Of a stretch of 64,000 bases of DNA, positions 9,270-64,000 are shown one piece after another. This DNA is from Psammoneis japonica (lineage: Eukaryota). Location: NCBI GenBank assembly GCA_008632985.1, contig QPGO01000021.1, positions 558,001-622,000 of the forward strand. Direction: 5' to 3'. Below the pieces are notes generated by a model. That model saw only the letters and a list, made by a program, of their open reading frames with translations. It was not told the DNA's origin and did no database searches. Numbering within the stretch: position 1 is the stretch's first letter; each line of letters starts with the position of its first letter. A program made the translations under genes and the position numbers.

Positions 9270-10400
9270 TGGCAGGCCTTGCCGATTCTCCTCACACTGA
9301 GGGCAGCCCACAGAGTTGCTCCACTTCAGTCTCCTCTTGGTGATGCACTTTTGCATTGCCTCACTGTCTTGCCTGCATCAAGTGACTGAGTGGGGGGTTC
9401 GTCCTCTCTCTCTCTCTCTCTCTCTCCTTCTCCAGAGCCACTGCATGTTGTCATTTGTTGTCACACAGTGGCTGGGTGCATGCTGAGTGTTTCATGACCC
9501 ACCTGCTGTCCTTCCTCTTTCCAATCCTTTGCTGTGGGCTCTTGAGGTGCAGCTCTTTTTGTGAGCAGCAGCAGCACACTCATGCCACACTGCCAGAGAC
9601 ATTCCTTCTCTGCTCTCAGAGTCAGCACTTGGCTTGGCAGATCTCTTTCATTTGCACACTTCAGGGTTGAATTGGTGGTCATGCCAGAACTTCCTGGGAA
9701 ATGCCAATGGCCACAGTTTGACTGGTTGTGCACATGTTCACAGTCATTGCTCTGCAAAAATCTTGCATGGTCGTGCAAGCAAATGCACCCTGTGTGTCAG
9801 CATCATGCTGCAGCTGTGCAAACTGGTGTGGGACAAAGTCGGGCCTGTTTTTGCCAACCTTTTTGTTTTGACAATTAATGCATGCATGCAACATGGCACA
9901 TCTGGAATTTTTTGATGTGGCCATGACACCTCCAGAGAAAAACTGGCCTCAGTGTGTCAGCCCATCCTTGCTGATTGACCCAATGGCTCCAGCCAGAGAA
10001 AATGAGTGTTGTCTTGACAGACACAATGGGGCAGTTTCTTGGCAGGTTTTGACAATCATTGACAGCAGCCAAGTGCCATGCTCTGCATGGATTTTGATTT
10101 TGCACAATCATGGTTGACTCAGCTTTTGCTGTCAAGCTGCCAAAGACCTGCTGTTTTTTGTTTCAGCATGCTGCTGTGCTGTGTGCTGCATGCCTGGTGT
10201 GTTGATGAGCAGTGCCAAACAATGACGCCACACATCTCCCTTCAATTTTTTAGCACACTCACACCTCTCAGCATCTCAATCATTGCAGAAGTCAGGAGCA
10301 GCAAGTGCAACAAAAGGTGCTGCTTTGTGTGTGACCTCATGGTGTGACCATCATTTTTGTCATGATGTTCGCTGCCTCATGCCCCCCCCCCTCTCTCTCA
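9270..10400. mobile_element. Degenerate repeat-derived sequence (TpA/CpG-depleted), family unresolved
   Basis: Almost no TA or CG dinucleotides; (CT)n at about 9403-9427. Weak integrase-Zn-finger-like remnants on the minus strand (CINCQNKK). Confidence 0.45.
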
Positions 10401-10449
10401 GTGGCCTCCCCATTTGCAATCTGACAGGACAAAACTGGGGGGCATGGGA

Positions 10450-11967
10450 GATGCAGAGTTTGTGGCAGGAAAGAAGATTTCCAAGGTTGTGAGAGAATGG
10501 CTGCAACAGACAATCATGTGGTCAAGGTCAATGCATTGTTGAACATGGCTCAAAAGGTTTGAAAGGGGTTGTGAGCAGGGAGGGTTGGCCATTGTGCCTT
10601 TCCACAGCTGTTGTGGTTCACCCACTTTGAACATTTTGCCAGAGATGTCTTGTCACAATGGGGTTGCCAAGCCAGAGCTCTGGCCCCAAAATTTTCTGTG
10701 CAGTGCAACGCACATTGTCTGGTGGGTTTGTTGAGAGGCATTTGTTTCGAAGCATCTTGGAGGTTTTTCAGCCTTGAGAATGCCACTGCCAGCCACTTGA
10801 ATCCAGCATGCACTTCACAGACATCTTGGTGGATTTTTTGCATCTCTTTGCATGGTGCTCTGCATGGATGGTGTTCTTCTTGGTGAAAAAATGGGACAGT
10901 GCTGGGGTTGGTTGCATCAGTGACATTAGAGCTTGGAGGGTTTTGGCCTTGGAGAGCCACAGAGGCTTCTAAAAGGAGCTGTTGCAAGTGCTTTCTTTGT
11001 TGTGGCCACATGCTGCCAGCTTGTTGAAGAACTGGGTGGCTGTTCATTTGCAGTCCATGGGGTCTGAATTTTGGGCCCAGCACACATGCAGGTTGCCATG
11101 CACGACACCACTTTTCAGCACTCCAGGTGGGTGGGCAGAGCTTGGTGGAGTGCACAAGTGCAGGTTCACTGGTTTTTGGTGCATCTTGGTCTTGATCTTG
11201 TGGCATCAGTTTGCTCCAATCCGGATGTCAAGATCCAGGAAAACTGTGTGTTTGCTGAGTTCAGATGTTTCCCATTTCAGCAGGCCATGGTTGTCAAGTT
11301 CTTGCTTGAGCTTCTCCCAAGTCTTGCCTTGTTTGCTGCCGGTCAGCACGCCAAGTGTGTCATTGACGAATCATCCACAACACAGGAGGTTGCAGATGAA
11401 TCTTGGGATGTTTTGGCAATTGTGGAGGGCTTGGGACATGGCGGCACACATGCAAGCCATGCGGCCACCCATGGCTGTTCCATTTGTTTGGAGCCAGAAG
11501 GCGTTGCAAAGCTGGAGGATGTTCCTTGTCATGATGATCTCAAGGGCGGTCAGAAAAAATTGATTGGGAAATTTTCAGGTGCTTCATCAGGGTGCTTGAG
11601 GAACCAGCAACAGAATGTTTCCAGCGTGTGTGCACAGTGTTGATGTTGGAGTGCATGCTGGCTGCATTGGCTGTGAGTGGTTTTGCATCTGGCAGGAGTT
11701 TCCCCAGTTGTTGGTCACTCATGACTTGGTGAGAGTCTCAGATGCATGTCCGTGAGAGTGGCAGAAGCTCCTTCATTTTTGAATCAAGCCACTTGGAGAA
11801 AATTTTGTTCTCACCATTGATGCAGCTCACAATGGGGTGGGTTGCCCGTGGCTTCTTGTGTGCCTTTGGTGCAGTGCAGAGCTGAGGCACACAGGTGTGC
11901 AGCTTTTTTAAGCTCCGTTGGAAGCAAGTTTGTTCGACAGGTGAGAGTTCTTCCTCTGCAAGGTGCA

Positions 11968-12019
<52 letters not shown>

Positions 12020-12250
12020 GGCTCAACAGAAGGCACTTGTGCTTGGCAACTTCATTTTGACATGATCTGTTGCACTTTTTTGGTGGGTCAGCACAACAAA
12101 ATGACAACCCATCACATGTGGCTGGCAACTGTGCTGTGCCAATGCACGCCATCAAACAACCACAACAAATCAATGTTGACAACACTCATGCCATTTGCTG
12201 GTGGCATGAGACACAAACATGACCAAGAGTTCTTAAATGAGAGACTTGCG
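10450..12250 (-). mobile_element. Degenerate Penelope-like retroelement (RT remnant)
   Basis: Minus-strand fragments PQLCTAPKAHKKPRATHPIVSCIN..FSKWLD, DAKPLTANAASMHSNI, NGTAMG..ACMCA, VFLDLDI and AVAFSRLKNLQD match PLE RT motifs (PKxHK..RPIVS, DxxSMYTNI, GTAMG), with Tyr replaced by Cys or His. Confidence 0.8.
11972..12014. repeat. (CT)n microsatellite inside the Penelope remnant
   Basis: About 21 TC units directly visible. Confidence 0.95.
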
Positions 12251-12844
12251 ACTGCCACTTAGAAACACAAGCAGCCAGGCTGAGAGTGGCTTGGCAAGAG
12301 GAAGGGTGCAGGCAGGCAGGCAGTGCCACTGCACCGGAAGTGGGAGTGCCCCTGGCACCTCGCTTGCTCCCCTGGTGCTCGTGGCTGTGCCAAGGCTGCC
12401 AGCATGCTTGCTGCCTCAGGACTGGCACTGGGTCACTTTTGCCACTGCCTCCCTTTAGCTGCCCCAGCTGGCACAGACAGGGGCCAAGCAAACTACAGTG
12501 CTGGAAGTCTGCTGCAAAGATGGCACTGCAGGTGTTTGTGGCACGTGTCGCGCATGGATCTCGCAGGAGAAAAAACGGTGCAAGTGAATGCTTCAGTTGT
12601 TTCCATCAGCTTTCATCATGCTTGGCTTGAAGTTTTTGCTTGCAGGGTGGATTGTTCTTTCTAGTTTATTGAGTTTCATCTCATCGAATTTCGCTTGCTT
12701 CTTCCCTTCAAACTATTTGCAGCGTAGGCAATGGTTTGATCATATTTTCTAATTGTACTGTTTTGTACTTACTACCTGTTATCCGCCAGTGTCAAAAACA
12801 ATCATAAGTAGTATTCCGCCAAAGGCGCGCAATGATCTAACTAC

Positions 12845-16451: not shown

Positions 16452-17784
16452 TGCGGGCGGTGGCGTACGTGGATGAAGACAGAGACGAAATGGAATTTCA
16501 AATATGGTAGCTCTAAAATCTGCCGCCGATTGCCAATCAACCCAATCACTGATTGATTGTTGTAACGATGAGTGATGATGTATGCTGCTGTAGTTCGCCA
16601 AATTGTCATGTGTTTCGACAAGCGCTGATTCACGCTAATGATCCACTTTGGGGTCGCCCGCTGGCAAGGATACGCGTGACGCAAAACACACGATGCAAGC
16701 GTCTCGTCCAAAGCATTGTCCATTACTTGAAGCCCGAGAGAAGCACTAAAATTTTATGCATTGCCCCTCATCACTGGCCAAGAATCAAAAATAAGAAACC
16801 ACCTAGATGGGAAAGATAGAGATGGAGAATGATGTTGTTAGTTTGTTTGTCATGCCGGTACTGTAAATGCATGATGCATCAATACTGCTTTAAATGTAAA
16901 CATACCTTATTGTACACATCCTTCAGAAGTAAACTGCACGAGATTCCAGCCCGCTCGCTCGCATTGCAATCGCAGAGTCTCCACGCCACCAAGATTTACC
17001 CCAGTTTTCGGTCCCCGAACGAGGGAGTGCTACTAACCGGCACTCGGCAAGGTCATGGACGTCAATATCCAACCCATTGCACATTATAATTGTCATTATT
17101 CGTGAAAGTATCAACTGTAGCTTGCTTGGTTCAGTCCAAAAGAGAGCGTAGGACACACCACAGCCCCGTTCCGATATAAGGAAGAACATGAGTTGAAAAG
17201 AAATGGTGTCGACACCGACACGAAACTATGAGATATTGTTCGTCCGTAGGGGTGATACGTTGCTCAACAGCTTCTCTATATGAGTTATAAAGACGAACAT
17301 GTCAAAGAAAATGAGTGAGATGCCGAAACAAAAGCACAATTTAATTCGATTGCGACAGAGAGCGATAATGAGTCTCGAACCGTGGTGTCAATACAAAATC
17401 CTTTTTCACCTTACAATTGACCGCTTACCTTCGAAAAAGCAACATAAGCTGTTTCTATATGGAGGTAAAGACTAGTAGATAGCGTTGGTATTGTTGAAAG
17501 GATCGTCAATAGTCTAATAAGCGGCGCTCCGATTATCATGGTGTGTGGTGCTTTGATGAATGATGCGCGATCCCTTGAAAAAATGAGGATATACAAAATA
17601 TACATAAATTTATATACTTTAACGGCGGAGTTATAAATCCTTGGTCGCACCACTCCCAGCTGGGAGGCTGTCGCACGACTGCGATGGACACCCGCGAGAC
17701 GCGACCGGTCCTTCAAAAAAACCACGACCACGCTGTGGTGACTTGGGGGGGGGGGGGCGCGGGGCTGGCACTTTAATTTAATCT

Positions 17785-19440
17785 GTCAATGCCCAGCAAT
17801 GGATCTCGATCAGTCTGATGCACTTGACACACCTGGCCCCACACACCAACAATGCACTGTTGTCAACTTCAGCTTGGTCAAGCTCATTGCTGTGCTGGGA
17901 ACTGGGAGAAAGCCACATCACACGGTGCTCCAAACAAGTTGATGCTCCAGAACATTGAAGCCAGCCACAGGAAAATTCCATAAGATCTTTTGAAATGAAC
18001 GAGGCAATGAGAAGAATGAAAAATCCAAGAAAAAACCCAAGGTGAGCAATGTGGGGGGCACCATCAAGAAAGAAAAGGCCTTTGAAGATGTTGGGGTGAC
18101 AAGCGCTCAAAATGGACATTTGATCAGCGAGACAAACTCAGCTGCAAAAGCACCTCATGCCAAGCCTCGTCAAGCTCAAAGTTCAAACAATTGGTCAACT
18201 TGACACAATTGCACCCACCTCCTGAATGCAAAAAATTTGCTGCCCATTCTGACACAACAACTTCTCTCTGTGTGCAGAGCTGGGCTGGGCAAAAAGTTGC
18301 CATGGGGAATGAGATGCTCCAAATCAGTTGCTGTCATGTGGCTTGAAGTGTTTCACCATGTGGGAGATTTTGATGAATGCACACTCCAAGCATGTTTGGA
18401 CTTGTGCTCAAGACCAAAGTTTGCACTCTCATCTGGAATTTGTGGTGGCTGCTCAGCTCTGCTTGCTGTTGTTTTTGAGATGAGAAAGAATGGCAGAGGC
18501 CACTGGAGGGTTGGCGTTGCACATCAGATCTGCGCGACAATGTGGAGTTGTTGCCATGTGGCCCTGACAGAAGGTTGTGCCCAGATTCTGCATTGGCAGG
18601 CAATGGACATGTGTCACAAAGGAGAGTCACACAGAACAAGTCCCCAGATGAAATGGCGCTGGTGCTTGGCTGCTGGCAGGAGGGCATGCACTGCTTTGGC
18701 TTGCTTCTGCCAAGAACTGCCACACTGTCTTTCCTTGCACACTTGAAAAAGAGTGCACCAGCCATGCAGTCAAGCAAGGCAGCTTCCGCAGGGCAAACGC
18801 CCAATTGAGAAATTCTTGTTGGCTGCATTTGAATGAGGTGGTTGGAGTTGATGACAGGTGAGGGAGGAAGGTGCATGAGTCAAGCTGGAGCTTTGCCTGC
18901 ACAAAAACTCTTGCAACAGAATGAGCTGAGGGCTGCACATTCAGAGGTGATGGTGGTGTGGCGTGTGTCAGAAGAGCTGAGTGCAAAAGAGGTGAAGGAG
19001 ACAGGCATGCTCAGATGGACAGCTGCCTTGCAAATGTGGAGTGAAGCGGAGTTGCTCAAAACAGTCAAGCTGCTGCTGCAGCCCAATGGCAAGCTGGTGC
19101 TCCAAATTCAAATGGCACAAATCACATGCCTTGCCAGAGCGCATTGATCTCCAAGCCAAGGGCTGCCCATTTGTTGTGTGGCAGGAGCATGAAACAAGGT
19201 TGGTGGCCTGGAACTGTGCGGGATTTGGCTCAAGAAGAGTGCAACAGAGTCAAGCACAAAAGAGCCAAGAAGGAAAGTTGCGCGGGACTTGGTTTTCTGG
19301 GCTTGTCAGGGAGGGCTGGATTGACTGCTTGGGTTGCGCTTGTGATCAGACACACCAGGTGCATGCTGGCCTCACATCATTGACATCATCAAAGGCTTGA
19401 GAGATGGGGGCAGCATCAAAGAAGATGACCAGCTCATCAG
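17785..19440. mobile_element. Degenerate repeat-derived block (TpA/CpG-depleted), family unresolved
   Basis: Starts just after a poly-G run at about 17744-17757; TA nearly absent; overlapping ORFs have no Tyr. Confidence 0.5.
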
Positions 19441-20886
19441 CCGCTCTGCAGATTTGGCACAAATTCAAACATGCAAATTTGAAATTTGATCAACTTCACA
19501 AAATTCCACATTGCCAAACCGAAAAATTGGTGAGAAAAAGGTTGAGTTGAGAGTGCAAGAAAGAGGAGTGAGGCAAAATGACAGCAGCAACAAAGCCAGC
19601 ACATGGCACCCAGAAGAGAGAGCCAATCGCCCCCACAATCAACAGCTCACCAATTCTGTGAGTTGTGAAATGCTGCGTCACTGCAGCATGCCTGGACTGA
19701 GCAGTCATGCCAAAATGAGAGAAAACAAAGTGAGTGACTCAAAAAAAACATTGGCACACAAGCAAAGTGGGGGTGTGAAAATGAATGACACACAACAGGG
19801 GAGGTTGGAAGCCACCACAAAAACCAGCAATGCAGACATGTTCGTCTTTTGCCAAACAATGTGTGCTCCTCTTGCGTTTTCATTCGCCACCTTGCAACCA
19901 GTTGAGAAACAGCAAAACCATGCATCGGTTGTTTGCAGCAGCCATCTTGCGAAGGCTCAAAGCAAGCTTCCAAAGCGGGTTTGCTTCTCTCCGCTTGTTT
20001 GTCGTCCGCAACACTCGCCGGCGGCGGCACTTGTCATCAGCAAAAACGCGAAAACTGTCATGATCATTTTTCCCCTGTGGGGTGGACAAATTCTGAGCCA
20101 CATCCTACAGCACTGACCATCCATTGTGCAAAAATTAGCGATGGCCGACCGACTGCACACAGGGCCTCTGTCTGTTCTGCTCCAGAGCAGCTTGCCACAA
20201 ATTCCAAAATGCAAACTTGGTCAATTTCACAAAATTCCACATTCCTGAACAGAAAAACAAGTGAGAAAAAGGACGAGTTGAGTGCAAAAAGTGGGGGGCG
20301 ACAATGCTGGCTGCTGGTGCCCCGGAATCCCCGAAGAAATCCAACAACCAAGAGCTCGCCAACTCTGTGAGTTGTGAAAATGCTGCGCGTCACTGCAGCA
20401 TGCCCAGACTGAGCAATTGTGACAAAAAGAGGGAAAAAGTGGATGACTCAAAAGAGCATTGGTGGCACACAAGCAAAATGGATGTAAAAAAAAAAGACAC
20501 ACGATGGGAGAGGTTGTTGGAATCCACAAAAATCAACAAAGACATGTCTTTTGCCACGTGTGCACTCCTCTTGCGTTTTGCATTCGCTGCCTTGTGACCA
20601 GTTGAGAAACGGCAAACCCACGCATTGGTTGTTTGCAGCAGCTGTCTTGTGCTGTCTTCTCTCAACGTCCGTGACACTTGCTGAAAGTTGATGTCGATAA
20701 AGAAAGAGCTTTTCAATCTGGAACAAGCTTGTTTGACATTGGTGCTGCACGCCGACGGCGGCACTTGTCATCAGCGAAAACTGTCATGACCATTTTTTCC
20801 TGTAAAATGGACAAATTCTACCCTACAGTAAGTACCGACCGTCCATTTTGGCAAAATCAGCGATGACCGACCGTGCGTAGGGCCTA
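19440..20886. repeat. Two tandem diverged copies (~720-730 bp) of a non-coding repeat element
   Basis: Colinear matches at about 19440-20170 and 20175-20886, e.g. cacaaaattccacatt, ctgtgagttgtgaaa.tgctgcg, ggcggcacttgtcatcagc.aaaac, and the ends gaccga..agggcct. Confidence 0.85.
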
Positions 20887-21007
20887 GTACAGTGTGTACG
20901 GTACAGTACGTTGGATGACGGGCGGAGTGAACACCACGCACCACGGACCACGCTGAAAATAAGCGACTAACTCCAAACTACTCGCGAAGAGAGCATAGGT
21001 GGCGACC

Positions 21008-22288: not shown

Positions 22289-22469
22289 CTCGACGATTCA
22301 TTCTCTTGATAAGACAGATTAACATGTGGCTTGAACTTCAACTCCTTTTGTGGATCATTGTATGACAATCGACGTTGTTGCGGTGCTCATCAAAGCATCT
22401 CGTCTCGAACAATGGCGAAAACAGCACTGCACGGTAGTAAGAGGCACCATGCGCAGCAATCGCCCCCCC

Positions 22470-23610
22470 CCCAGCAGGCCCCATCACCGCACCACATTGT
22501 AGAGTGACATGACAAAATCGGTCCCACATCATTTTTTCACTGTGGCATTTTTCTCTCAAAGTCAAAAGACAGCACAACACCCACAGTTCACAAACGAGAA
22601 TTTCCATGGGATCAAGGTCAAGCAAATCAACAGCCACTGCGATTGTGCCAGTCAAACAGGAGACATCCAGTTGCTGCCTCAACTGGGTGGTGCATGCTCA
22701 GTTTGCTGCCAGTGTGTTGCGCGCAGGTTGTCAAACTGCAAAGTTGCATTCCTTGAAATTTGCACCATGTGCAACTGGGATCAGCACAAAATGAAGCTCA
22801 CCAAATTTGTCAGTTGGACTGTGGCACACTTCACCTTGAGTCATTTGGGTCATGGCATGAGACAGCCCTCCATTTGCACTGCCATCAGTTTCAACCATTG
22901 TGGTTGTTGCACTTTCACCCTGGCAGCAAGAAAACATCAAAGCTAGAGCTGAAACATTGAAAGCAACCCAGCTGGAGATGCACTCCAGCCCCAGGTGGGA
23001 CTCCATGTGAAGGGGGCTTGCAAATTCTGCACACAAGTTCCACGGCAGAATTGCCAAGCAATGAACACACGAGCGATTGCCAACAGAAGAAAAAGAGAGG
23101 CAATTTTGTGAGTGCATCATCTCCTCCTCCACACTCAAAGCACATCATTTCCAGTTTTCCTGGGTGTGTGCTTCAGACACCAAAGAATGCACCTGCCCAC
23201 TTTTGCTGCCACAAATGAAGAAAGCAGCAAGCCTTTGGCTTCTTCGCGCAAAGCAGGGAGTGCGAGCCGAAGCAATTTTGCAGAAGATGGCATGCAGAAA
23301 TGTGCATGCATGACATGCAGCACAAAACCCAAAAACTCTCATGTCACAGTGCCGAAGGGACCAGGGACTTGGGTTGAGAGCAGGTCGAGGAGAGCGAAGA
23401 GCCGAAAAGCTGAAGAGAGATCGATGGCAATGGCGCAGAAGAAGCCAAGGCCACACCAAGATGGTCCTCAACAGTGAAGGGGAGAGGATGAAAATGCCAT
23501 CATTGTTGAGTGAAGCAACAAAGAGTCATCCATCAGTGGAGGAGGCAGAGGGTCCAAGAAACTTTCATGCTGTGTTCAAAACCGCAAGCTCCACAAAAAA
23601 AAGTCGACAC
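22470..23610. mobile_element. Degenerate repeat-derived block between the GT47 paralogues
   Basis: Starts at a poly-C run (~22463); TpA/CpG depleted; ORFs within it have no Tyr. Confidence 0.5.
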
Positions 23611-23962
23611 CTACTGCGCCGATGCTGTGTGCGTGTCTTCCGCCTGGATGTGCCTTCTCCGCATCAGGATCACTCGCACTCCCAACTGGGAGGTCTGTAA
23701 GTGGTACGGAAGAAGACTGGATCACTCGCAATGGGTCTTCGGAAAACTTTCCCGAACTTTCCAGTCCCGCGCGGGAGAAAGGAATGAAGGTTCTTTTTCC
23801 CAATTTGAAATTTTCTTGGAACTCCCAAAGCCCGTGCACATCCTTTTGTCGACAACACTGTTTCAAAGAGCTAAGAGCTATCGATACCATTTACCATTTT
23901 ATCCGCTTCGTATTTGCTGTTGACCAAACACAATGCACGACGGAAGCCGTAGCCTACCGACT

Positions 23963-25227: not shown

Positions 25228-25422
25228 CATGATAATGCATTATTTCAAAACGACTAATTCTTTCTTTAACACATTGTTGCTGTACACAGCAGATTACATC
25301 GACCCACACGACGAAAGTTGCAGATATGATATCTTTGAAAGTTTTGTCCTTGGCAGAAGCGTGCACCAAGCCTTTCGAATTTGCTTTTTTATCAACGGAT
25401 TCGAAGCCTCGCCCGTAATGTT

Positions 25423-29175: not shown

Positions 29176-29233
29176 TGTGTGTTTTGTTGTTTGTGTTATT
29201 GTTGCGTCGCTGTATCTCCGGGTTTTTAGGAAG

Positions 29234-29548
29234 CGACAAACTCGCAAAATAAGTTGACAAACTCGCTGAAGTCCACAAACTCGTGAAGTTGACAAAGTCC
29301 CCAAAGTTGACAAAGCTGCCAACTCCAAAAGTGGACAAACTTGCCAAAGTCGACAAACTCGCCAAGAGTCAACAAACCTGCCAAAAGTCGACAAACTCGC
29401 CAAAGTCGACAAACTCGCCAAAGTCAACAAACTTGCCAAAGTCGACAAAGTGGACAAACTCGCCAAAGTCTGCAAACTCGCACAAGTCGACAAACTCGCC
29501 AAACTCGCCAAACTCACCAAAAGTCGACAAACTAGCCAAAGTTGACAA
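29234..29548. repeat. Tandem array of an ~18-bp unit (gtcgacaaactcgccaaa)
   Basis: Directly visible; variants gttgac/gtcaac and cttgcc/ctcacc. Confidence 0.9.
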
Positions 29549-29587
29549 AGCAGTGCTTCCCAAATGTGCACTTTGGTCAGACCACAN

Positions 29588-29980
29588 CGGTTGCTGCTTG
29601 CTGCTTGGCTGTTGCCAGTTGCCGGTTGCCGGTTGCTGGTTGCTGCTTGGTGATTGCTGGTTGCAGTTGCCGGTTGCTGGTTGGCGGTTGCTGGCTGCTG
29701 CTGGTTGCTGGTTGGCGGTTGCTGGTGGCTGGCGGCTGGTTGCCAGTTGACAGAGGTGCTGGTTGCCGGGGTTGCCGGTTGCTGTTTGCCGACAGCTGTT
29801 TGCTGGTTGCTGGTTGCCAGTTGCTGGTTGCTGGTTGGCGCCGGTTGCTGGTTGCCAGTTGGTGGTTGGCAGTTGCACATTGCTGGTTGGCGGTTGGCGG
29901 TTGGCGGTTGCCGGTTGGAGGTTGCTGGTTGCCGGTTGCTGGTTGCCAGTTGGCGGTTGCTGGCTGCAGTTGCCGGTTGA
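29588..29980. repeat. Tandem array of a 7-bp unit (gttgccg/gttgctg/gttggcg)
   Basis: Directly visible; begins right after a single N at 29587. Confidence 0.9.
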
Positions 29981-32100
29981 TTTTGTGGAGCCGCATCATC
30001 ATCAACCAGGAGCAGAGCCCCGCCATGCAGGCAGCAAGGTGACTAGAAGCAAGTGCAGAAGAAAAAAAGCAAAGTTTGGTGGGTGCTGAGAGAGTTCTCT
30101 TTGTCCAGCATGCAAGACTGGTCAGTGTCTGGGGCAAAGAAATGAGAAGTCTGCAAGCCAGTCAGATTCCCTGGGGCTCCCAGCACAAGATTGTGACTGC
30201 TCACAACAGGCACAGCAGAGGCCCAGCTGCCAAAAAAGAGAATTTCAAGCACTGGGCTGGAAACCTGCTTTTTGGGCCTCAACACTGCAGCTGGTCCCAT
30301 GTGTTGCCAACCGCATGCAAAGATCAGCAAGTGTGATCTTGGGCACACTGCAACACATCTTCACTGATGCAGTGTGAGATGAAGATCTTGCAAGCCAAAT
30401 TGTTGGGTGCATGGGTGCATCTTTTTGTCTCACATGGCACTTTGACATCAGCTGCACATTCCCAGCTTCTGCTTGGGTTTCTACGAAATTTATTGCACTG
30501 ACGTCACCCTTCTCAGGCAGTGTCATGTTGGCTCCAACAAGCCTGTTTTGCCCACATTTGCCAGCATGGTGCAACCTTGTCACAGCATGATGAGCAATGT
30601 TCTTCAGTGGAAAACAACGAGTGTCGAAGCCTTGTGGTTTGTGTGCTGGTTGTCATTTCTCACAATTTTCCATCATCTCAGAAAATTTCCACATGAGCTC
30701 CGGTGCAAATTCTGATCTGCTTTTTACACATCTCCTGTCAACTTCTGTCCCTGCCAATTGGTCTTCAATGCTGCTTCTTTTCTCTGTTGTTCAACCAAGT
30801 CTTTTAAAGCAGCTCCTCTGTTGCAGCCTTTTTTAGCAAGAACAAGAGTCATCCTTGGTGTCAGTTGACTGTCATCCATTTGCTGTGCACGCACCAGCAT
30901 TTCTGTGCAATTTTTAGCATTGTTTCCACATGTGACACGAATGTTGCACCACTGATGATCTGCGCTGCACATCTCCGGTCATCTTCTGTCCCCGCCAATT
31001 GGCCTTCAATTCCACTTCTTCTTTCTGTTGTTCAGCCAAGCCTTTTGCTTTTTGAGGTGAAAGCAACACCTCTGTTGTGGCCTTTTCTAGCAAGAACAAG
31101 AGTTTTCCTTCAGTGTCAGTTGACTGTTCTCCATTTGATGCATGCACCAGCATTTCTGTGCAATGTCTGGTGTTGTTTCTACATGCAATGAACATTTTTT
31201 TTCAACAACCCACCCGGCTCACCTTCAAGGCTCCCAGCTCCACACATCCAAGTCCTGTGCAATCTTTTCTTCAGTTTGCTCTCTGCTCTTCTCCCTCTCA
31301 CACCCATGTGCTGTTGTGTGTGTGTGTGATCTTCTCATGCTTGAAAGTTTTGACATTTGCTTTCTCAACCAAATCTGCTGTCACAATCTCTTTGCGAGTG
31401 TGTGAGAAAAAACAACTCATGTTGGCAGTCAAAAAGTGGGTGTGCAGTGCCACAAGATGAACTCAGCAGCCAGCACCCATCTGAGCTCCTTTGTGCTTAG
31501 ATGAACCTGGTTGATGCCCAAAATCTTCACTGCCCCACGCTCATGATGAAGCAACATGCAACATGGGCTGGTGGTGCACAGACCACCAGAGTGACATCCC
31601 CCACTGTGTCAACAATCTCAACACTGTGTGTGTTCCCTGGGCACAAGTTCAAGACATGGAAGAAATTGGTCTCATCCACAAGAGTTGCAAAACATCTCCC
31701 ATGTCTCTGTGTTTGCTGCACAGCTTCTTTGCTTTTCACAACTCCTCCATTTTTCCTGACACTTCTGTCAAAGCTGGGTGCATGCATGGTGTGCTCAAGT
31801 CATCATGCCTCAAGGCCCCAGGCTCTTCAACTTCTGCATTGAAGATCCTGTCGAAACATTTGATTCTCATGTGCTCCACACAATTTGGCCATGCCTTGCA
31901 ACTTTGGAGCCTGTGGAAGCAGGCCAAACAGCATTTGAAGCATGTCCTTTTGACAAGAAGGGTGAAAATTCCTGGTGGAAAGAGAGAGAGGAGTGGATTT
32001 GGTCCATGAAAGGTGAGAGTGAATCCATGCAGAATGATGCATCCTTGAGAAAGATGAGAAGAAGAACTAAAGGCTGAAGAGGCCAGGTGATGAGAGTGAA
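29980..32100. mobile_element. Degenerate repeat-derived block with an internal ~240-bp direct duplication (30727-30960 and 30968-31190)
   Basis: TpA/CpG depleted; cacatctcc.gtca.cttctgtccc.gccaattgg occurs at 30727 and 30968 with colinear downstream sequence. Confidence 0.55.
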
Positions 32101-32535
32101 CCAACTGCATCTGAATTGAGACCAAACTTTCAAAAGAAGGGACCTGAACCAGGGGCACCGAAATCGAGACCAAGACCTCAGAATAAGAAGGGGCCTGGTC
32201 GCGGAAAGGGAAAGCGTGCAAAATGCACAGAAGCCAAACGCACCAGAACCAAATCTCGGCGATTCTTCTAGCTAGAAGCCGGATGAAAAACCACTCAAAT
32301 CGAACGGAAAACACGAGGGCAATGTCAAAGGAACAACAAGCGACGAGGAGCAAACGAACAAGAAACCTCCGCGACGACGGAGAGAGAATGTTGTTAGCAA
32401 GGAGGTCCCTCCACCAAATGCGCAAGGGAAGCGTTTGGGCAAGGGGCTACATTATGGCAAGACGTCTAGCTGTATATTTTCAGAAACAGAATTGAATGGA
32501 AGATTCGTTGTTTCCTATACAATCAATCTCTGACC

Positions 32536-35131: not shown

Positions 35132-35327
35132 GTTTCCTTCATCTCAGTACCACAAAGCTATGAAAGAAAAGGGAGAGTTGTTTGTTTTAACCCAGAGTAA
35201 AAGAGGGGAAAGATCTGCCGGTAGATGTAGAAGATTTCCGTACTAGTTTATGCTTCTTCATAAAGAGTGACCTGCTTTGGGCCAAACTCCAGTTCACAGT
35301 GAATTCATCCATCATGAGGACAACAGT

Positions 35328-35512
35328 NNNNNNNNNNNNNNNNNNNNNNNNNNNNNNNNNNNNNNNNNNNNNNNNNNNNNNNNNNNNNNNNNNNNNNNNN
35401 NNNNNNNNNNNNNNNNNNNNNNNNNNNNNNNNNNNNNNNNNNNNNNNNNNNNNNNNNNNNNNNNNNNNNNNNNNNNNNNNNNNNNNNNNNNNNNNNNNNN
35501 NNNNNNNNNNNN
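35328..35512. other. Assembly gap (N run)
   Basis: Run of n. Confidence 0.99.
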
Positions 35513-38350
35513 TCAACACGACAGTCACCATTCTTCAGGATGAGGTTGCACAAGGCTGGAAGCTGGTGCTCCCAAAGGAGGTTGTGAACTCCATTCTTGG
35601 AGGAGTTGTTGTTGCCTCACTGGGATTCATTGCACAGTGCACAGCAATCATTCTGCAGGCATGGGGACACTGTGGTGAAACAAACAGGTTGACACATGAC
35701 CAGCCCTTCAATCTGACAAACGGCAGACATGGTCCTTGCTGAGGAACTCACCCCATGCTGATTCAGCTGGGCACTTCTGTGGCACATGCATCACATTGTG
35801 CACCTGTGCTCATGTTTTTCCAACAAGCACATCTTGCAAACTGCAAGGAAGGTTGACTGGAATTTGGCTCAAAGACACCTGCACCTGCACCCATCCTCCA
35901 CCATGCAAGCCCTCATGACCATTGGCGCCTTTGCCCTGTGCACTCTTTTCCTCGCTTTAGAGACACCACCAATGCCAGTCTGCAGTTGGATGTCAGCAAG
36001 CTCTTGTGCAACCTCAGCATCAATCTTGTCAGACACTCCTGCTTTGACCCATCCACACACTGCTCAAATTGTCTGCTGTTGATTGCCCACATGCCACCTC
36101 CACACCTCCGGTGCCTCATCATCACTGCCAGCAGAGTTGGCAGTCTTGGATTCTTTGCCTCCCATTTCTTGCTCATGCCCTGAGTTTGATGCACACACCA
36201 ACAACATGTTTGGTCCCATTTTGGAGTGCAGCTGTGAATGGGGCAGCGCCATTGTGCTGCTTGCATTTTGCATCTCCTTGGTCAGCCCATTTCACAGGTG
36301 GAGACAACCCCATGCAAAGGAGACTTGCTCTTCCTCACACCAAGTTTCTGGTGGCGGCAATGCCAGATGAGATCCAAACTTTTTTGGGTTTTCTCCTCAA
36401 CAACACTGGTGCTCTCTTTGTTGTGCTGCTGAGGAAAAAGGAGACAGCTTGGGTGGCCTCTGTCCACACTGCTGTTGCTCTGTTGCACATTGGCAAAGTC
36501 CTCCAGCTTGACTCCTCCCCTCGTTGGCCACCTCAACCACATTGCATCAGTCATTCCAGCAGCCTGGCACTTCCTTCTTAGAGGTTGCCTGTGTCAAGCA
36601 TTGCACGTCACTCAATGTGTCAAGGGAGCACCACATCTTGTCACCGGCTCAATCATGAGCTGACTTGACACTGTGGTTGGGTTTCTTCCATCATGCTGCC
36701 CTGGCAGTCAGCCTCAACATCTGGGGCAGCATGGTGTTGGGAATTGCCAACCCACCTCAACACTCCAAAATTTCTTGTGTGGTGCATCATGCACCAAATG
36801 AACCTGCTCTTGGGAAACCAGCTGATGGAGTCCTGCCATTTGCTCCTCCAGGACAACAGCACCTCCACCAATGGCCAGATGCAAAAAGCTGGCTTCAATG
36901 ATCGTGCCATCGTCATCCAGCTGGAGACAGGAAGGACACTGCCTGCACAGTCAACAGCTCCCAGGGAAGGTGATGAGCCTGATTTGCAGTTCTTTGCTCC
37001 AAGGCAACACCCACCTCTCCCACACACAACTGACTGACACATGTTCTCAGTCTGCGCACTTGCCACCCTCCCTGTGGGCTCCAACTGGACTTTGAATCCA
37101 TCCTCCACTGCCCAAGCTCACCTCACAAGTCATGATGCAGCTGCTTGACAATCCCATCAGCACCCAAGAAGGAATTGCTGCCACAGCTTCCCAGAAGCAA
37201 ACTTGCAATTGCAGCTGCTGTGCCCAGTTTCTTCACATCAATCTCAACAACAATTGTCCCTTGCTTGATGGCATTGACCTTTGCAACCAAGAAAAGTGCC
37301 TTGTTGGTGCCTTTGACTCTGCCATCATGCCAACACCATCCAATCCAGTGCAGGCACAAATTCAGCTTTGGTGCCATCATCTGGCAAAATTCATGCCACC
37401 ACTGATGCTGTGGCTGAGACCTGCTGGGCTCGCCACCACCCTTTTCCCACCCATCCACAATGAATCCAACAAGCTTTGCTGGCTTCTGCAAAAATGGCTG
37501 GAAAGGCTGCACAAATCCAGACAACTCTCCAGCAAAAATCTCAGAATGCTGTGGGTCCTCCTCTCCCAGTCATCCATTGACAGCACCAACCTTGTTGGCA
37601 AGGCTTGCTGCCAAACTCCTCACATGAGGACGAGAGGGCTTTCTTTTTTGCAACGCACTTGTGTGAACTCCTCTGAAAGTGTTGGGCAAGAAACAGCACA
37701 CTGTGCTGCTCACCACCCTTGCAAGCTTGTTGCAGCATTTCTTTTGCAGCCAATGCAAAAAGCCCTGCAAGAATGATCCTGAACTGTGCCCAGCTGACAG
37801 TTTTTCCATCACCGCTGCACTCCAGAAGAATGGTGAGAGGGGTGGGACTGCAGTGCAACACTGCACCCACAATCCACCCATGCCCTGTCAAGGCTCAGGT
37901 TGCTGTTGTTTGCTGCATCTTGTCACATCTGGGCACCAGCTGAAGCACCAGGTGCTCCACGCAAAAATCTGGCACAGCCACGGGCGCGCAGCACCTGGCG
38001 CCAGTGTCCCATCAAGTCCCTGCATCAGATGACTGACACAGAAGCAACACATGAGCCTGAAAGCAACACATGGGCCACAGCAAGCTCATTCCTTTCTTCC
38101 ATCAACATTGCACTGCAACATTGATGAGTTCGAGAGTGAGTTTTCGCTTGCAGCTCGCGCCGCCACCCACCCTTTGCGGCTCTCTGGCTGGAGCTCCAAA
38201 TCTGGGTTGCCTCAGACTTGGCTGGCTCCAGCTCGAGGTCTGATGCTGGTGGCCATGCCACAAACAACCAGAGAGCTAGTCCAGGAGTGCATCAGCCACC
38301 AAAGGAAAGCAGAGTCAAGAGCGACAGAGGGCAATCGACCCATCGATTGG
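35513..38350 (+). mobile_element. Degenerate tyrosine-recombinase (DIRS/Ngaro-like) retrotransposon
   Basis: RT-like remnants DEVAQGWKLVLP, RLTHDQPF, RKVDWNLAQRHLHL and QTFLGFLLNN; YR-like ADSFSIT..QKNGERG..QH.T..P.PC near 37790-37890; ends in a ~330-bp repeat. Confidence 0.65.
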
Positions 38351-38677
38351 GCAGTTCGTGTGTTGGGAGACATTTCCCCCCCTCCGCTCGCGGTGCTGCC
38401 ACATGCGCCCAAATCCAACGGATGAAAATTTCAAATTTCGCGGTAACCGACGATGTTCGTCGTCCATTTTACTGTACTGTAAAGTTGTTCAATGCACCCC
38501 ATCTAGAGGATATGTCAAAGAACCTGGATATTACGTATGTCATGCGGCATAGCATGGAATGTTCCGTGATTCATTCCAGCGATCATCGTAGCGCCATTTT
38601 ATCGATTATCGTCGTCAAAAAATCACAGTCTCAACGCAAACAACAACGTATTACTCTTCGACTTGCAACAAAGCGCA

Positions 38678-39668: not shown

Positions 39669-39946
39669 AGTAGCATTGCTGTATTTGACGTTGGAACGAT
39701 TCTTGTGAGACTAGCAAAAATCAGTGAATAACGCGGACACATTTCTTTGAATGAGACGCGGGAATGATGCGTTTACATGAAGCATCAGCAGTAGATTGTT
39801 GTTATTTTCCTGAACACGCTTTTTCGCGACACATTAGACTTGTAACAATTAGCAAATGCTCAAGCCAATACAAAATAGTTGAAATTCAACAAGAAGATTG
39901 TTCTGCACATCACACTCGAGCAATTGGTGAGCCTTCTGCTGTCAAT

Positions 39947-42660
39947 GCCAATCGATGGGTTGATTGCCCTCTGTTGCTCTCAACTCTGCTTTCCTCTGGT
40001 GGCTGAAGTGCTCTTGGACAAGCTCTCTGGTTGGTTGTGGTTCAGGGCCCCAGCCACCAGCACCAGACCTTGAGCTAGAGCTGGCCAAGTTTGGGGTGAC
40101 CCGGATTTGGAGCTCCAGCTAGAAAGCTGCAAAGGGTGGGTGGCATGGGCTGCAAGTGAAGACTCACTCTCAAACTCATCAACGTTGCAGTGCAATGCTG
40201 ATGAAAGAAAGGAATGAGCTTGCTGTGGCTTGCATGGTGCTCATGGGCTCATGCACTGCTTCTGCATTGGCTGTCCAATGCAGGGGCATGTCACAGAAGA
40301 CAACCTCTGCTGATGCAGGGAGAGGCACAGACCAGCACCATCTCTTTGTTGGTCTCAAATCTGTGCTGAGCAAACTTTGTCTTGTTTTCTCCACACTTTG
40401 CCACCAATCACAGAGTGCATTTGGTTGAGAACAAAATGTCCCTGAGCCATGAGTCTGATGCATGGGTGCATGTTGATGAGATCCTCTGCCACTGTTGGCG
40501 GAGGGGGGCATGTGGTGTTTTCTGTGCATGCAGTGCACAGCTCCTCTGTTGCGTGGGATGGTGGTGGCCATGAGGTTGCTGCCAATGTGGGTGGGTGGGA
40601 AAAGTGCTTTCCGTCTCCAGCAAGTCTTTGCTTGTCTGTGTTTCTCCAATTTGTGGGATGTTGTGAGCACTTGCTCCTCTCCAAGGCACCAAAGTTCTGC
40701 CTTTTGTGCAGCTGCTCTCATTTGCAGGGTTGCTGCTTCTTGTCAACACACCCACATTTCTGCAGGTCAGGGCCAAAGCAGAGCCCTTCCAAGGCACCAC
40801 ATCAGTGCAGCTGGCCCTCTTTCTCCAAATCTGATCTCATGCATTCCTCAACCTGTGGCCCTCCACTCCTTGTTGTCTGCTGAGCAAGCACAAGCTTGCG
40901 CGCAGCTCTGACCTGCCTGGGGGGCTGTGTGGAGAGAGAGACATGCCACAGCCTGCTTGAGCATTTGGCATGGGCAGTGCCAGACATGCACTCTGCACTT
41001 TTGGTGCTGTTTGCTCAGCATGGATTTCAGCTGGCACTTGTGTCTGACTTCCACTGCCCTCCTCTGTGCAGTCTTTGTGAGAGCCCTTTGATTTGCAAGG
41101 AGCAACAACCAAGACATTTGGGGCTTCTAAAGACAGATGCAGCAAGTCAGCCCCCCCCTTGGGCTGCACATTGGGTGCATGTGCTGCACATGCCAGTCTC
41201 AAGAACTGTGGGGAACAACAAGAAATTTCATGCACACTCATCATGCTTCAGCAAGAATGGCAAAGTTGCTGGGCCAAGTGCAGGGATCTTTCTGGCTTGA
41301 GTCACAAAAATTCACATGATCAACAATGGCCCATGGTGTGCCACTGTCACTGCTTGCACCTTGTGGTGCTTTCATCAATGTGCAACCTGGCCAATCATGG
41401 CGGGGCACAAAGCTTGCGATGTTTTTCATGCTGGTGGCTTGCTGGCACTGGTGGTGTGCCACTGTCTGCAAAAAAAAAGCTGACTGCTGGGAGCTCATTG
41501 TGCCAAACATTTGGGAGGGGGGTTGTTTCTGCAAGGAGGAGCCACTTTTGGGTTGCTTGATCAGTGTGTTGTCAACTTGAGCTGGAGAGGTTGGCACTCC
41601 CTCTTGCTTCTGCCAGCACACAAGTGAAGCTCAAAGCAGAGAGCATGGCAGCCAACAAAGAGAGCCAAGTTGTGGCAGGCATTTTTGCAGCAGACATTGT
41701 TGGGAAGGTTGTCACTTTGGCAATGAAGGAAAACCCAGACCATGAAAACATGTCCAAAAAGTGCTGGGATGCACTGCATGACATTTTTGCATTTCAGCAC
41801 TTGCTGCCCAACATGGGTCGCCCCATTTTTGTTGTTTTTCATTGCAGCCACCTGCAAATGATGGACTTCTTCAAGCACACAGCACTGCCAACATGCTGCA
41901 CCACAACTCTCTGACATGTGGGTCTTGTGGTCTCTCACCACACTGGTGCACATTTGAGGAAAGTTGCTTTTCTCACCACCTGTGCTGGAAAGAACCCCTG
42001 GTCTCTCTGTTGTTTGGTGCCATGCTTCAAATTTTTGGAAAGTTGGGTCTGCTCCTTGTCTTCTGAAACTGTCAAGAATGCACAGCAAGAGGCAAAGCAG
42101 CAAGTCTGGCCTCTCAGTGACTTCTCTGTGTGGTCCAGTGTTTGCCAAATGACACCCAGAGCTGGGCATGGCTCCCAGCTTTCTCTCTCCATCACTGAAG
42201 CAGCACCCAAAGGCTCAGGGGAGTTTTGTGGAAACACCCCCAAACCACTGACTTCCAACTCCCAACACAACTTCAACTGCCCCAGGCACAGTTGCAGGCG
42301 CACATGTCTTTGTCATGTGCTGCAAAAAAAAGAGCACACACGAGTGAGGAGAGAGACAGCATCTGCCCTGCACATCAGTGGGCACAAGAAGTGGGGCAAT
42401 GCAGGCAGCACTCTCAGGCTTTGACAAACCATTGTTGTTGCAACACCAGGAGCTCCGCCAGAGCTCTGCAGATGGCCCAAATTGTTCCTCCCGCCCCCGG
42501 CCCACCACCACACACTCGGTCACTCCTTGTTTGCATGCTTCTGGCTCTGGGCCCAGGTCCCAACATTGGGATCTCAGTCAATCTTTAGCAATTGGGTGGG
42601 CACAGTCTCAAACTGCTGGCTTCGAACTAACTCTGCTCCAACTGTCCTCTCCTGGCAGCC
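39947..42660. mobile_element. Degenerate repeat-derived block starting with an inverted copy of 38017-38350
   Basis: 39947-40288 is the reverse complement of about 38017-38350; the remainder is TpA/CpG depleted. Confidence 0.6.
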
Positions 42661-63908: not shown

Positions 63909-64000
63909 TAGATCCATCCTTAATGAAGTGATGAGACAAGTCAAAACAGAATTGGAGTGAATTCTTTTGATGTTTCCTTCATAGTGTGAGTCTTTGTGGT

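Follow-up and report, generated by a model that had tools for sequence, protein, structure and literature searches.

The few TpA dinucleotides that survive in TpA-depleted intergenic DNA of Psammoneis japonica lie mostly in the context YTAR, and a TpA-specific mutational process that prefers 5'-TAY-3', whatever its chemistry, probably exists and explains them. The evidence comes from one window, the 64-kb stretch of DNA that was analyzed, with 32 surviving TA sites and 57 aligned TA sites. The window is part of a compact diatom genome; it contains N gaps, and the assembly is a draft.

A two-state HMM on TA+CG density identified eight intergenic blocks depleted of both dinucleotides (9284-12543, 17808-19874, 22520-23582, 30045-32158, 35262-38130, 39877-42622, 57403-58637, and 59821-63314), 18,848 bp in total, which retain 32 TA and 155 CG. 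Observed/expected ratios in the blocks are 0.03 for TpA and 0.14 for CpG, and TpG/CpA stands at almost twice expectation; outside them, non-coding DNA amounts to 15.3 kb and contains 5.2% TA and 5.5% CG. Block edges are sharp, and depletion is close to all-or-none. The preliminary description gave the extent of the pattern as 9870..41130; it is present there, but continues past that end to ~63,373. No coding capacity was recognizable in the blocks, whose 147 open frames of at least 70 aa gave no Pfam match at the curated cut-off.

TpA loss is restricted to domains, which the HMM placed, with no strand assigned, at 9269..12661 (domain 1; 9 surviving TA, 8 of them YTAR), 17635..20802 (domain 2, around the second block, with a tandem pair at 19482-19951 / 20213-20651), 22501..23871 (domain 3, flanked by two tandem GT47 [exostosin] genes), 29251..32268 (domain 4, around the fourth block; 10 surviving TA, 6 of them YTAR), 35262..38443 (domain 5, including a 185-N gap at 35328-35512), 39877..42585 (domain 6), 57396..58637 (domain 7, 0 TA), and 59816..63373 (domain 8). 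Domains 7 and 8 are separated by a high-copy repeat (58690..59815, no strand assigned; summed word depth up to ~2,400 versus ~60 for single-copy DNA) with normal rho values of 0.63 for TA and 1.06 for CG, which looks like a young insertion in old mutated DNA.

The loss of TpA is separable from that of CpG. Four margins of 0.5 to 1 kb each, all facing gene 5' ends, have a rho TA of 0.03-0.08 and a rho CG of 0.61-0.70; they include 19843-20802 in domain 2 (0.06 and 0.70), where the gene in question is the GT47 gene at 20999, 23245-23871 in domain 3 (0.08 and 0.67), and 37960-38443 in domain 5 (0.04 and 0.61). TA-low DNA reaches up to 1 kb past CG-low DNA, CG-low DNA never exceeds TA-low DNA by more than ~190 bp, and residual TA does not track residual CG from block to block. 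Because TpA loss reaches beyond CpG loss, these are two separate processes, and the change of CpG to TpG/CpA is a second one operating over most, but not all, of the TA-depleted DNA. It is best read as deamination of methylated cytosine: as in the CpG decay of methylated transposons, CG becomes TG/CA symmetrically on the two strands, only silent-looking DNA is affected, and CpG is partly retained in the four margins. Such decay, for which methylation of these blocks is presumed, cannot affect TpA, the loss of which is both fuller (rho 0.03 versus 0.14) and wider. CpG loss was quicker at WCG than at SCG.

By tetramer, the survivors are TTAG (10), TTAA (5), CTAG (5), CTAA (4), CTAC (3), TTAC (2), and one each of TTAT, ATAA, and GTAA, with every other NTAN at zero; they occur in six blocks, with 0 to 8 YTAR per block. 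YTAR accounts for 24/32 TAs inside the blocks and 300/1788 outside (odds ratio, 14.9; Fisher P = 1.3e-12), a comparison that presumes that the blocks were originally composed like the remaining window sequence, which is chiefly coding or young repeats, and that includes at least one pair of survivors (30834 and 31088) which are homologous in a tandem duplication and hence non-independent. RTAY, at 522/1788 outside, is absent inside (0/32). The preliminary description was therefore right that surviving TpA is mostly YTAR, and the 12 sites that it quoted are all YTAR and lie where it put them: 9876 (TTAA), 10251 (TTAG), 10927 (TTAG), 10970 (CTAA), 11909 (TTAA), 12234 (TTAA), 12260 (TTAG), 30834 (TTAG), 30915 (TTAG), 35958 (TTAG), 36579 (TTAG), and 41128 (CTAA).

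The enrichment in this 16-tetramer count holds under composition-type controls. It persists when the baseline is limited to non-coding DNA outside the blocks (157/795; P = 8e-11 versus inside), when the 75% share of YTAR among TAs is compared with the 23.8% of TG/CA in the blocks that lie within a Y..R frame (binomial P = 1.7e-9), and when sites in TTTTA/TAAAA are removed (16/22 inside versus 278/1706 outside; P = 1e-8); in the wider TA-only domains, the figures are 29/44 versus 295/1776 (P = 1e-12). T/A-tracts flanking TpA also protect it, TTTTA/TAAAA sites making up 10/32 survivors inside the blocks and 82/1788 TAs outside. That context was absent from the preliminary description.

The direction of change was polarized by aligning two unmutated reference copies with their mutated partners. 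The intact PP2A catalytic-subunit gene (53062..54159, + strand; Metallophos, E = 6e-42) aligns to a hypermutated pseudo-copy (62068..63452, + strand) contained in domain 8, which is a real diverged paralogue because it has indels and ~8% transversions. In the 3' flank of this pseudo-copy lies an inserted high-copy repeat (63460..63920, no strand assigned; summed depth ~1,500-3,300; TA and CG normal), the unmutated counterpart of a mutated relic at 9688-10040 in domain 1 (alignment score, 324.5 versus at most 247.5 in 20 shuffles). The main aligned stretch of the PP2A pseudo-copy keeps 0/25 TA of the gene (15 are now TG, 7 CA, and 3 other) and 3/45 CG (21 CA and 13 TG), and its final ~80 bp, outside the depleted domain, retain TA. 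For gene and repeat together, none of the 57 aligned TA sites is kept; 27 read TG, 16 CA, and 14 otherwise (43 clean TG/CA, 2 CG, and 12 transversions or other changes). The changes thus run from TA to TG/CA and from CG to TG/CA; non-hotspot sites show 163 transitions and 86 transversions in 1098, and since the reference copies have themselves diverged, some inferred changes are mis-polarized.

The change is specific to TA and favors a 3' pyrimidine. Counted per strand, A>G occurred at 50/117 adenines in TA versus 80/565 preceded by A, C, or G (P = 4e-11), a background of 12-16% (AA, 23/185; CA, 26/183; GA, 31/197). By 3' base, the counts were 14/25 for TAC, 19/33 for TAT, 9/24 for TAG, and 8/35 for TAA, that is, 33/58 for TAY versus 17/59 for TAR (P = 0.003, each site being counted twice, once per strand), which upholds the proposed target motif TAY, or RTA on the other strand. 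At informative YTAY/RTAR sites, change took the direction predicted from TAY 22 times and the opposite direction 11 times (P = 0.08, not significant alone), so the earlier statement that TAY usually becomes TGY and RTA becomes RCA is fair, but a strict TAY rule is not. Nor is YTAR exempt: about 80-87% of expected YTAR sites are lost, and of eight aligned in the unmutated copies, none is kept, five having become TG or CA and three having changed otherwise. With YTAR itself ~80% depleted, we conclude that the preference for TAY is ~3- to 4-fold, not absolute. A model in which the strands act independently, with k(TAY)/k(TAR) of ~3.8 (3.1 with the non-coding baseline), reproduces the 24 YTAR and 8 one-sided survivors and predicts 0.4 RTAY, of which none was observed. 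Strand outcomes were 32:30, 12:13, and 13:9, and runs tests gave z values of 0.2-0.6; both strands are struck equally and independently, site by site.

We propose that in old, single-copy, non-coding DNA between diatom genes (transposon relics and a pseudogene) TpA would become TpG or CpA through an A:T-to-G:C change of the TpA adenine in either strand, at a rate ~3 to 4 times higher where the 3' base is a pyrimidine than where it is a purine, and that T- or A-tracts alongside would slow conversion further. YTAR would be the slowest to decay because it presents TAR on both strands, and a finite dose, with k(TAR)*t of ~0.8-1.0 and k(TAY)*t of ~3, would leave mostly YTAR. The domains may be marked by a chromatin state or by past duplication. 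As the chemistry, our tentative first choice, which we would not call likely, is that an enzyme with a TadA-like preference for 5' T deaminates adenine in DNA to hypoxanthine. TadA/ADAT deaminases and TadA-derived adenine base editors likewise make A>G via inosine with a marked 5' T/U preference; UACG is required by native TadA, and UA is favored by TadA-8e (PMC12296453). The likeness to TadA suggested earlier is borne out for the T before A, but the match to UACG ends at "TA": TAT is as frequent a target as TAC, with no sign of a +2 G. Moreover, the natural enzymes work on tRNA, whereas here duplex genomic DNA is changed evenly on both strands. The 64-kb window contains no deaminase, methyltransferase, or dioxygenase gene.

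A duplication-triggered defense like RIP, in which one or more bursts of hypermutation at the sexual cycle had dual TpA and CpG specificity and few rounds left the YTAR bias, is compatible with the TAY preference and is a possibility to be taken seriously, at well under even chances. Like RIP in Neurospora and other fungi, the diatom pattern is near-saturating hypermutation over kilobases that consists of transitions only, falls in non-functional or duplicated DNA, depends on a dinucleotide context, has sharp edges, and affects each duplicate inside the blocks. A gene duplicate and a repeat-family copy are among the mutated DNA. Tandem copies in domain 4 (30601-30900 and 30852-31155) were mutated independently after duplication, with 11 TG/CA double differences across 317 alignment columns, approximately the yield expected from all ancestral TA+CG sites; the arms of an inverted duplication (38016-38350 on the left, in domain 5; 39948-40287 on the right, in domain 6) are 80% identical, or 95% in purine/pyrimidine code. 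Survivor load varies by block as though doses had differed. Diatoms also possess DNMT4 enzymes, which PMC9998398 relates to fungal RID and describes as of unknown function. RIP itself, however, makes only C:G-to-T:A changes, chiefly at CpA, which becomes TpA, so that TpA is gained (PMC2621366), whereas the diatom blocks lose TpA and half of their changes are A:T to G:C. The intact PP2A source gene is untouched; present-day repeats (summed word depth of ~1,000-5,500 versus ~60 for single-copy DNA) are normal in TA and CG; and there is no excess of transitions between the tandem GT47 genes, which are 85% identical. The depleted domain stops within the duplicated PP2A segment rather than at its end, the domains of TA loss and CG loss differ, and the copies, with their ~8% transversions, are old enough that slow decay is equally possible. 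No report of RIP in diatoms was found in the literature searched.

Sequence alone cannot separate adenine deamination at TAY from a primary lesion at the thymine of 5'-RTA-3', for example 5-hydroxymethyl- or 5-formyl-uracil made by a TET/JBP-type dioxygenase, which would mispair with G and give T>C, CpG loss being unrelated deamination of 5mC. TAY>TGY and RTA>RCA are one event on opposite strands, and the counts fit either route equally; the context preference, suggested earlier as a discriminator between mechanisms, restricts the choice without deciding it. The AA>AG test proposed with it does come out against Pol eta (see below). In trypanosomes, thymine hydroxylases modify the T of TTA/TAA at telomeres; TpA is reportedly a site of 5hmU enrichment in dinoflagellates; and 5-formyluracil forms mispairs with G. 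We nevertheless consider the thymine route unlikely: we know of no modified thymine in diatoms, oxidized thymine also yields transversions whereas 43/57 aligned TA outcomes are clean TG/CA, and the thymines of TpG are evidently unconverted, because CG stays depleted.

It is considerably less probable that the residual TAs are new, arising where ordinary C>T/G>A changes hit the abundant TG/CA, with YTAR reflecting an equilibrium of mutation and decay. The PP2A pseudo-copy does contain two new TAs (62734, from CG by two transitions, and 62170, from TTGACA by G>T), but both belong to the eight that are not YTAR. The inverted duplication has, in its right arm, two CTAG where the left arm has CTGG and CCAG, which by itself can be read either way. 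The tandem copies in domain 4 retain TTAG/CTAG at an equivalent position, and the Y..R frame is too rare among block TG/CA, as given above. For an equilibrium, the mutability of TAY would have to be ~15 times that of TAR, a ratio that the 22/33 changes in the TAY direction reject (P = 2.6e-6). The shared position, the rejected equilibrium, and the non-YTAR context of the new sites lead us to conclude that the survivors are left-overs rather than re-created sites.

We give very little credence to selection on YTAR as stop codons or signals, or to an artifact of sequencing or assembling modified DNA. YTAR does read TAA/TAG on both strands, TTTTTAGC occurs three times among the survivors (10251, 30834, and 30915), and the draft assembly has N gaps; however, the blocks lack recognizable coding capacity, and the survivors are dispersed over six of them. 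Raw-read unitigs (Logan contigs from a public run, possibly of the same sample as the assembly) match domains 7 and 8 at single-copy depth, 57245-58673 at depth 66 with 0 differences and 59866-63456 at depth 67 with 2 differences, and the indels and transversions of the PP2A pseudo-copy mark a real paralogue. Scarcely credible is A>G by Pol-eta-type error-prone synthesis (WA), as in somatic hypermutation, or by copying ADAR-edited double-stranded RNA back into DNA: both make A>G with a preferred 5' T or U, clustered in repeats in ADAR hyper-editing, but both also target AA, which here is at background (versus 57/380 for CA and GA combined; P = 0.44), so that Pol eta was rejected; ADAR acts on single RNA strands and prefers a 3' G, whereas these changes alternate between strands without runs and favor a 3' pyrimidine; and they are saturating and domain-wide, a single domain spanning unrelated elements (the PP2A copy and other DNA).

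No published counterpart of a mutator that purges TpA was found in the literature searched. The YTAR-biased residue in this diatom points to an undescribed mutator that favors the A of 5'-TAY-3'.

A 1-kb profile of the window reveals stretches in which TA and CG are both near zero and TG and CA are doubled. A two-state HMM called eight such blocks, numbered here in coordinate order: 9284-12543, 17808-19874, 22520-23582, 30045-32158, 35262-38130, 39877-42622, 57403-58637, and 59821-63314. Together they amount to 18,848 bp, with 32 TA, 155 CG, 2170 TG, and 2132 CA; the observed/expected ratio (rho) is 0.03 for TA (0.57 outside), 0.14 for CG (0.97 outside), 1.81 for TG (1.21), 1.88 for CA (1.15), and 1.25 for AA (1.16). 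The 15.3 kb of noncoding DNA outside the blocks has normal contents of TA (5.2%) and CG (5.5%), so the depletion is no general trait of the noncoding DNA of this genome. Read support came from Logan contigs of one public run placed on positions 52,001-64,000: single unitigs at a depth of about 66 span 57245-58673 with no differences and 59866-63456 with two, the neighboring genes having a depth of 54-63 in the same run. An assembler artifact is thereby excluded; the run may be the assembly's own sample and hence is not a second biological source. In run X2, from the same sample, the genes at 52-56.7 kb were covered and the blocks were not, and we draw no inference from this. The TA-normal stretches that lie beside or split blocks (about 56.4-57.4, 58.7-59.8, and 63.46-64.0 kb) have a summed word depth of about 1,000-5,500, versus about 60 in single-copy DNA. 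These present-day high-copy repeats (56400-57390, 58690-59815, and 63460-63920) have a normal composition, with rho of 0.56-0.69 for TA and 1.06-1.24 for CG, and look like young insertions in old junk.

The window is compact and eukaryotic, with long, mostly uninterrupted reading frames encoding an XRN exonuclease, GT90, two tandem GT47 exostosins, WD40, BTB, and MYND proteins, and the catalytic subunit of PP2A. The XRN fragment is 60 to 67% identical to named diatom proteins (Cylindrotheca, Nitzschia, Pseudo-nitzschia, Fistulifera, and Thalassiosira) and less so to those of other stramenopiles, and the PP2A protein matches agree with this diatom affinity; among the proteins of the collection there is no close named relative. 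XRN (748-4439, minus strand) occupies two open frames, 2589-4439 and 748-2403, possibly separated by an intron or a frameshift. Every block is intergenic. A Pfam scan of the 147 stop-free block frames of at least 70 amino acids returned two weak matches only, both below cutoff (DUF7451 and SWIM, E of about 0.003), and in the same scan the PP2A pseudo-copy described below itself escapes recognition. Other features of the window include (CT)n microsatellites at 9400-9430 and 11975-12015, close to the two ends of block 1, and, just downstream of the PP2A gene, a 250-bp unit repeated in tandem about four times (54580-55577), the copies being 83 to 86% identical and normal in TA and CG. A TA-free, repetitive, and partly self-complementary stretch (29224-30013) makes up the first ∼280 codons of a stop-free frame that ends in a WD40 domain (28147-30042, minus strand); the lack of TAA and TAG may be all that keeps this frame open over the stretch. 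Among 80 metagenome loci encoding PP2A relatives (371,597 bp, with few long loci and relatives at no more than 92% protein identity), no block free of TA and CG and rich in TG and CA was seen. Four 400- to 450-bp windows in these loci had at most one TA but 31 to 74 CG (GC content, 0.52 to 0.65), a different phenomenon.

The preliminary description had proposed that the TpA sites surviving in the blocks are mostly YTAR, which reads TAR on both strands, and that the target motif is therefore TAY (RTA on the other strand). All 12 of the examples that it quoted are present in the sequence, and the enrichment is strong: YTAR accounts for 24/32 residual TA sites in the blocks versus 300/1788 outside (Fisher p = 1.3e-12). 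By tetramer these survivors are TTAG (10), TTAA (5), CTAG (5), and CTAA (4); the remainder are YTAY (6) and RTAR (2), with no RTAY. Outside, the other contexts are YTAY (514), RTAR (452), and RTAY (522). The bias holds against noncoding outside DNA alone (157/795; p = 8e-11), against the TG and CA of the blocks themselves, 23.8% of which stand in a Y..R frame (p = 1.7e-9), and in the wider domains segmented on TA only (29/44 versus 295/1776). With both strands pooled, the base after a surviving TA is a purine in 87% of cases and the next is A in 58%. Flanking T- or A-tracts are a second signal, partly independent of YTAR: 10/32 survivors lie in TTTTA/TAAAA, versus 82/1788 sites outside (p = 2e-6), and with such sites left out YTAR still makes up 16/22 versus 278/1706. 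YTAR survivors number 8, 0, 1, 6, 2, 4, 0, and 3 in blocks 1 to 8, and the dose differs from block to block. This evidence comprises 32 sites in one window, and that from the alignments below 57 aligned TA sites, both with imperfect baselines; most of the DNA outside the blocks is coding.

The direction of change can be read from copies that have remained unmutated. The PP2A gene (53062-54159, plus strand) has a pseudo-copy in block 8 (62068-63452, plus strand) in which none of the 25 aligned gene TA sites is kept (15 became TG, 7 CA, and 3 other) and only 3 of the 45 aligned CG sites are (21 became CA and 13 TG). A relic in block 1 (9688-10040) is a mutated form of the high-copy repeat at 63671-63990; their transition-tolerant alignment scores 324.5, and 20 shuffles reach at most 247.5. 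Per-strand rates were pooled over three alignments. A>G change occurred at 50/117 TA sites versus 80/565 remaining A sites (p = 4e-11), the rate after A, C, or G being 12 to 16% (AA, 23/185; CA, 26/183; GA, 31/197). AA did not differ from CA and GA combined (57/380; p = 0.44), and Pol-eta-type mutagenesis at WA, which the preliminary description had set against a TAY-directed process, is accordingly rejected, A>G being raised at TA and not at AA. ADAR hyper-editing, with its one-strand A>G runs, 5' U/A, and 3' G, is likewise rejected: the strands are balanced, AA is not raised, and a 3' pyrimidine is favored. By triplet, the A>G counts are TAC 14/25, TAT 19/33, TAG 9/24, and TAA 8/35, giving TAY 33/58 versus TAR 17/59 (p = 0.003) in a test that sees every site from both strands. 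C>T change was found at 73/187 CG sites versus 66/454 other C sites (p = 5e-11) and was more frequent at WCG (49/108) than at SCG (24/79; p = 0.05). This preference agrees with the CpG sites surviving in the blocks, whose density relative to outside is highest for GCGC (0.55) and CCGG (0.29) and lowest for ACGG/CCGT, TCGG, ACGT, and TCGA (0.06 to 0.09).

We modeled the loss of TA as a dose, with independent hits on the A of each strand, k1 being the rate for TAY and k2 that for TAR. Fitted to the survivor counts, the model puts k2*t at 0.82 and k1*t at 3.09 (ratio, 3.8, or 3.1 with the noncoding baseline) and expects 0.45 RTAY survivors, with none seen. At YTAY and RTAR sites, which are informative for strand choice, TAY-strand changes outnumber TAR-strand changes 22 to 11 (p = 0.08); the model ratios expect 75 to 79% on the TAY strand, with which 22/33 is compatible (probability of a count no higher than 22, 0.17 and 0.07). 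The idea that a TAY preference spares YTAR therefore stands in the sense of slowest decay, but not of immunity, since about 80 to 87% of the YTAR sites expected have been lost and, of the eight that could be aligned in the reference copies, not one is kept (five became TG or CA and three other). An equilibrium of creation and decay at all TA sites would need the mutability of TAY to exceed that of TAR about 15-fold, which the 22/33 count rejects (P = 2.6e-6). Two tandem copies in block 4 pair TTAG with CTAG at one corresponding position and differ over 317 columns by 11 double changes of the TG/CA type; the shared TA is thus ancestral, and nearly all TA and CG loss came later than that duplication. 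The two new TAs of the PP2A pseudo-copy, at 62734 (from CG) and 62170 (by G>T), are both non-YTAR. Given the shared TA, the context of the new TAs, and the rejection of equilibrium, we conclude that most YTAR sites are left-overs of a finite dose.

TAY>TGY and RTA>RCA are one event read on opposite strands. Outcomes are balanced between the strands (32:30, 12:13, and 13:9) and without runs (z = 0.2 to 0.6), a pattern that speaks against a processive mode of attack on exposed single strands, and against editing of one RNA strand followed by reverse transcription. A single domain can span unrelated elements, as in block 8, which holds the PP2A copy and 2 kb of other DNA. When TA and CG were segmented separately, the TA-low domains reached 0.5 to 1 kb beyond the CG-low ones at four edges, and CG-low DNA extended at most about 190 bp past TA-low DNA. 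The TA-low margins that keep CG lie at 19843-20802, 23245-23871, 29251-30021, and 37960-38443 (rho of 0.03-0.08 for TA and 0.61-0.70 for CG). By our reading, each of these margins flanks its block on the side turned toward the 5' end of the neighboring gene, and edges facing gene 3' ends have no margin; it looks as if CpG is protected near promoters and TpA is not. Per block, residual TA and residual CG do not track each other. The simplest reading is that CpG loss requires a putative cytosine methylation that ends short of promoters and that TpA loss has no such need.

Two explanations of what marks the domains fit about equally well. One is slow decay confined to a domain marked in chromatin, where TpA would be about as hot as methylated CpG or hotter; it is consistent with the age of the aligned copies, which are old, as judged from 163 transitions and 86 transversions in 1098 non-hotspot sites. 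The other is a trigger by duplication, as in RIP. Depletion close to all-or-none favors such a trigger, as does the presence of duplicates among the mutated DNA, the within-block copies having been mutated later than their duplication. A purine/pyrimidine-coded self-comparison of the window recovered the PP2A pair, an inverted pair, two pairs in tandem, and a single repeat relic, with no block-to-block families above noise (score of about 40). The arms of the inverted pair (38016-38350 and 39948-40287) are 80% identical, or 95% in purine/pyrimidine code, with TG/CA double differences and a CTAG in one arm opposite CTGG and CCAG in the other. This 335-bp inverted duplication brackets a 1.6-kb segment of normal TA and CG with a 299-amino-acid open frame (38570-39469) that lacks a Pfam match; arms and interior together may represent a gene, or else a mobile element, with long inverted ends that are mutated and an interior that is not. 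A duplication trigger is harder to reconcile with the intact PP2A source gene, with the unmutated present-day high-copy repeats, and with a domain edge that falls within the duplicated PP2A segment. Nor is there an excess of transitions in the tandem gene duplicates, namely, the GT47 exostosins (21034-22320 and 23977-25259; 85.5% identical, 92.5% in purine/pyrimidine code), between which a mutated block sits, and the BTB proteins (43123-44260 and 45105-46242; 67% identical).

RIP is the nearest known kind of process, with an opposite effect on TpA. The fungal type makes only C:G>T:A changes, mainly at CpA, which raises TpA, whereas here TpA falls to a rho of 0.03 with A>G at 50/117 TA sites. 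On a further trait of RIP, mutation of every copy of a duplicate, the observations point both ways: duplicates within blocks are both mutated, and the PP2A source and the high-copy repeats are not. The CpG half resembles decay driven by 5mC, which likewise yields CG>TG and CG>CA on both strands and affects other C far less. RIP depends on a cytosine methyltransferase of the RID/DNMT4 type. The diatom DNMT4 enzymes, which one source (PMC9998398) describes as related to fungal RID and without known function, would be a lead for the CpG half alone. A TDG-driven TpG>CpG change described in PMC4041421 runs in the opposite direction. The loss of TpA itself would be explained by deamination of adenine to hypoxanthine, which in TAY turns A:T into G:C; the same counts also fit a lesion on the RTA thymine. 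Native TadA depends on UACG and TadA-8e favors UA (PMC12296453). TadA-family deaminases have a 5' T/U preference in common with the process here (TA at 50/117 versus 12 to 16% elsewhere). The likeness may end at this 5' T: the native motif is T-A-C-G, and here either pyrimidine serves at +1, TAT being equal to TAC, and the substrate would be duplex genomic DNA; position +2 is confounded, as CG is itself a hotspot. No deaminase gene is found among the genes of the 64-kb window.

In the freely accessible full texts searched, neither domains purged of TpA nor junk DNA hypermutated from A to G have been described, whether for diatoms or for other eukaryotes. To our knowledge, all described genome-defense hypermutation (RIP, APOBEC editing, and CpG decay) acts on cytosine, and we rate what is new here as a variant of context-specific hypermutation of junk DNA. 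A bolder proposal, which we put forward as speculative and consider rather unlikely, is that diatoms, or at least this lineage, clear away transposon relics and stray copies of genes by two means: CpG methylation and a natural enzyme system that edits duplex genomic DNA, either at the adenine of 5'-TAY-3' (converted to G by way of inosine) or at the thymine paired with it. If true, fungal RIP would have a counterpart directed at A:T, and a natural hypermutator of DNA adenine would be known from a eukaryote for the first time; TpA removal to completion over kilobases, with an enzyme-like neighbor preference, would constitute a new mutator class. Shortage of TpA would gain a mutational, rather than selective, precedent, and the YTAR rule would offer a simple, countable signature by which to recognize and dose the process in other genomes. 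The finding would also suggest a function to seek in diatom deaminases, DNMT4, and dioxygenases, and the process might serve as a natural source of an activity that edits adenine in DNA within a defined context, TAY.
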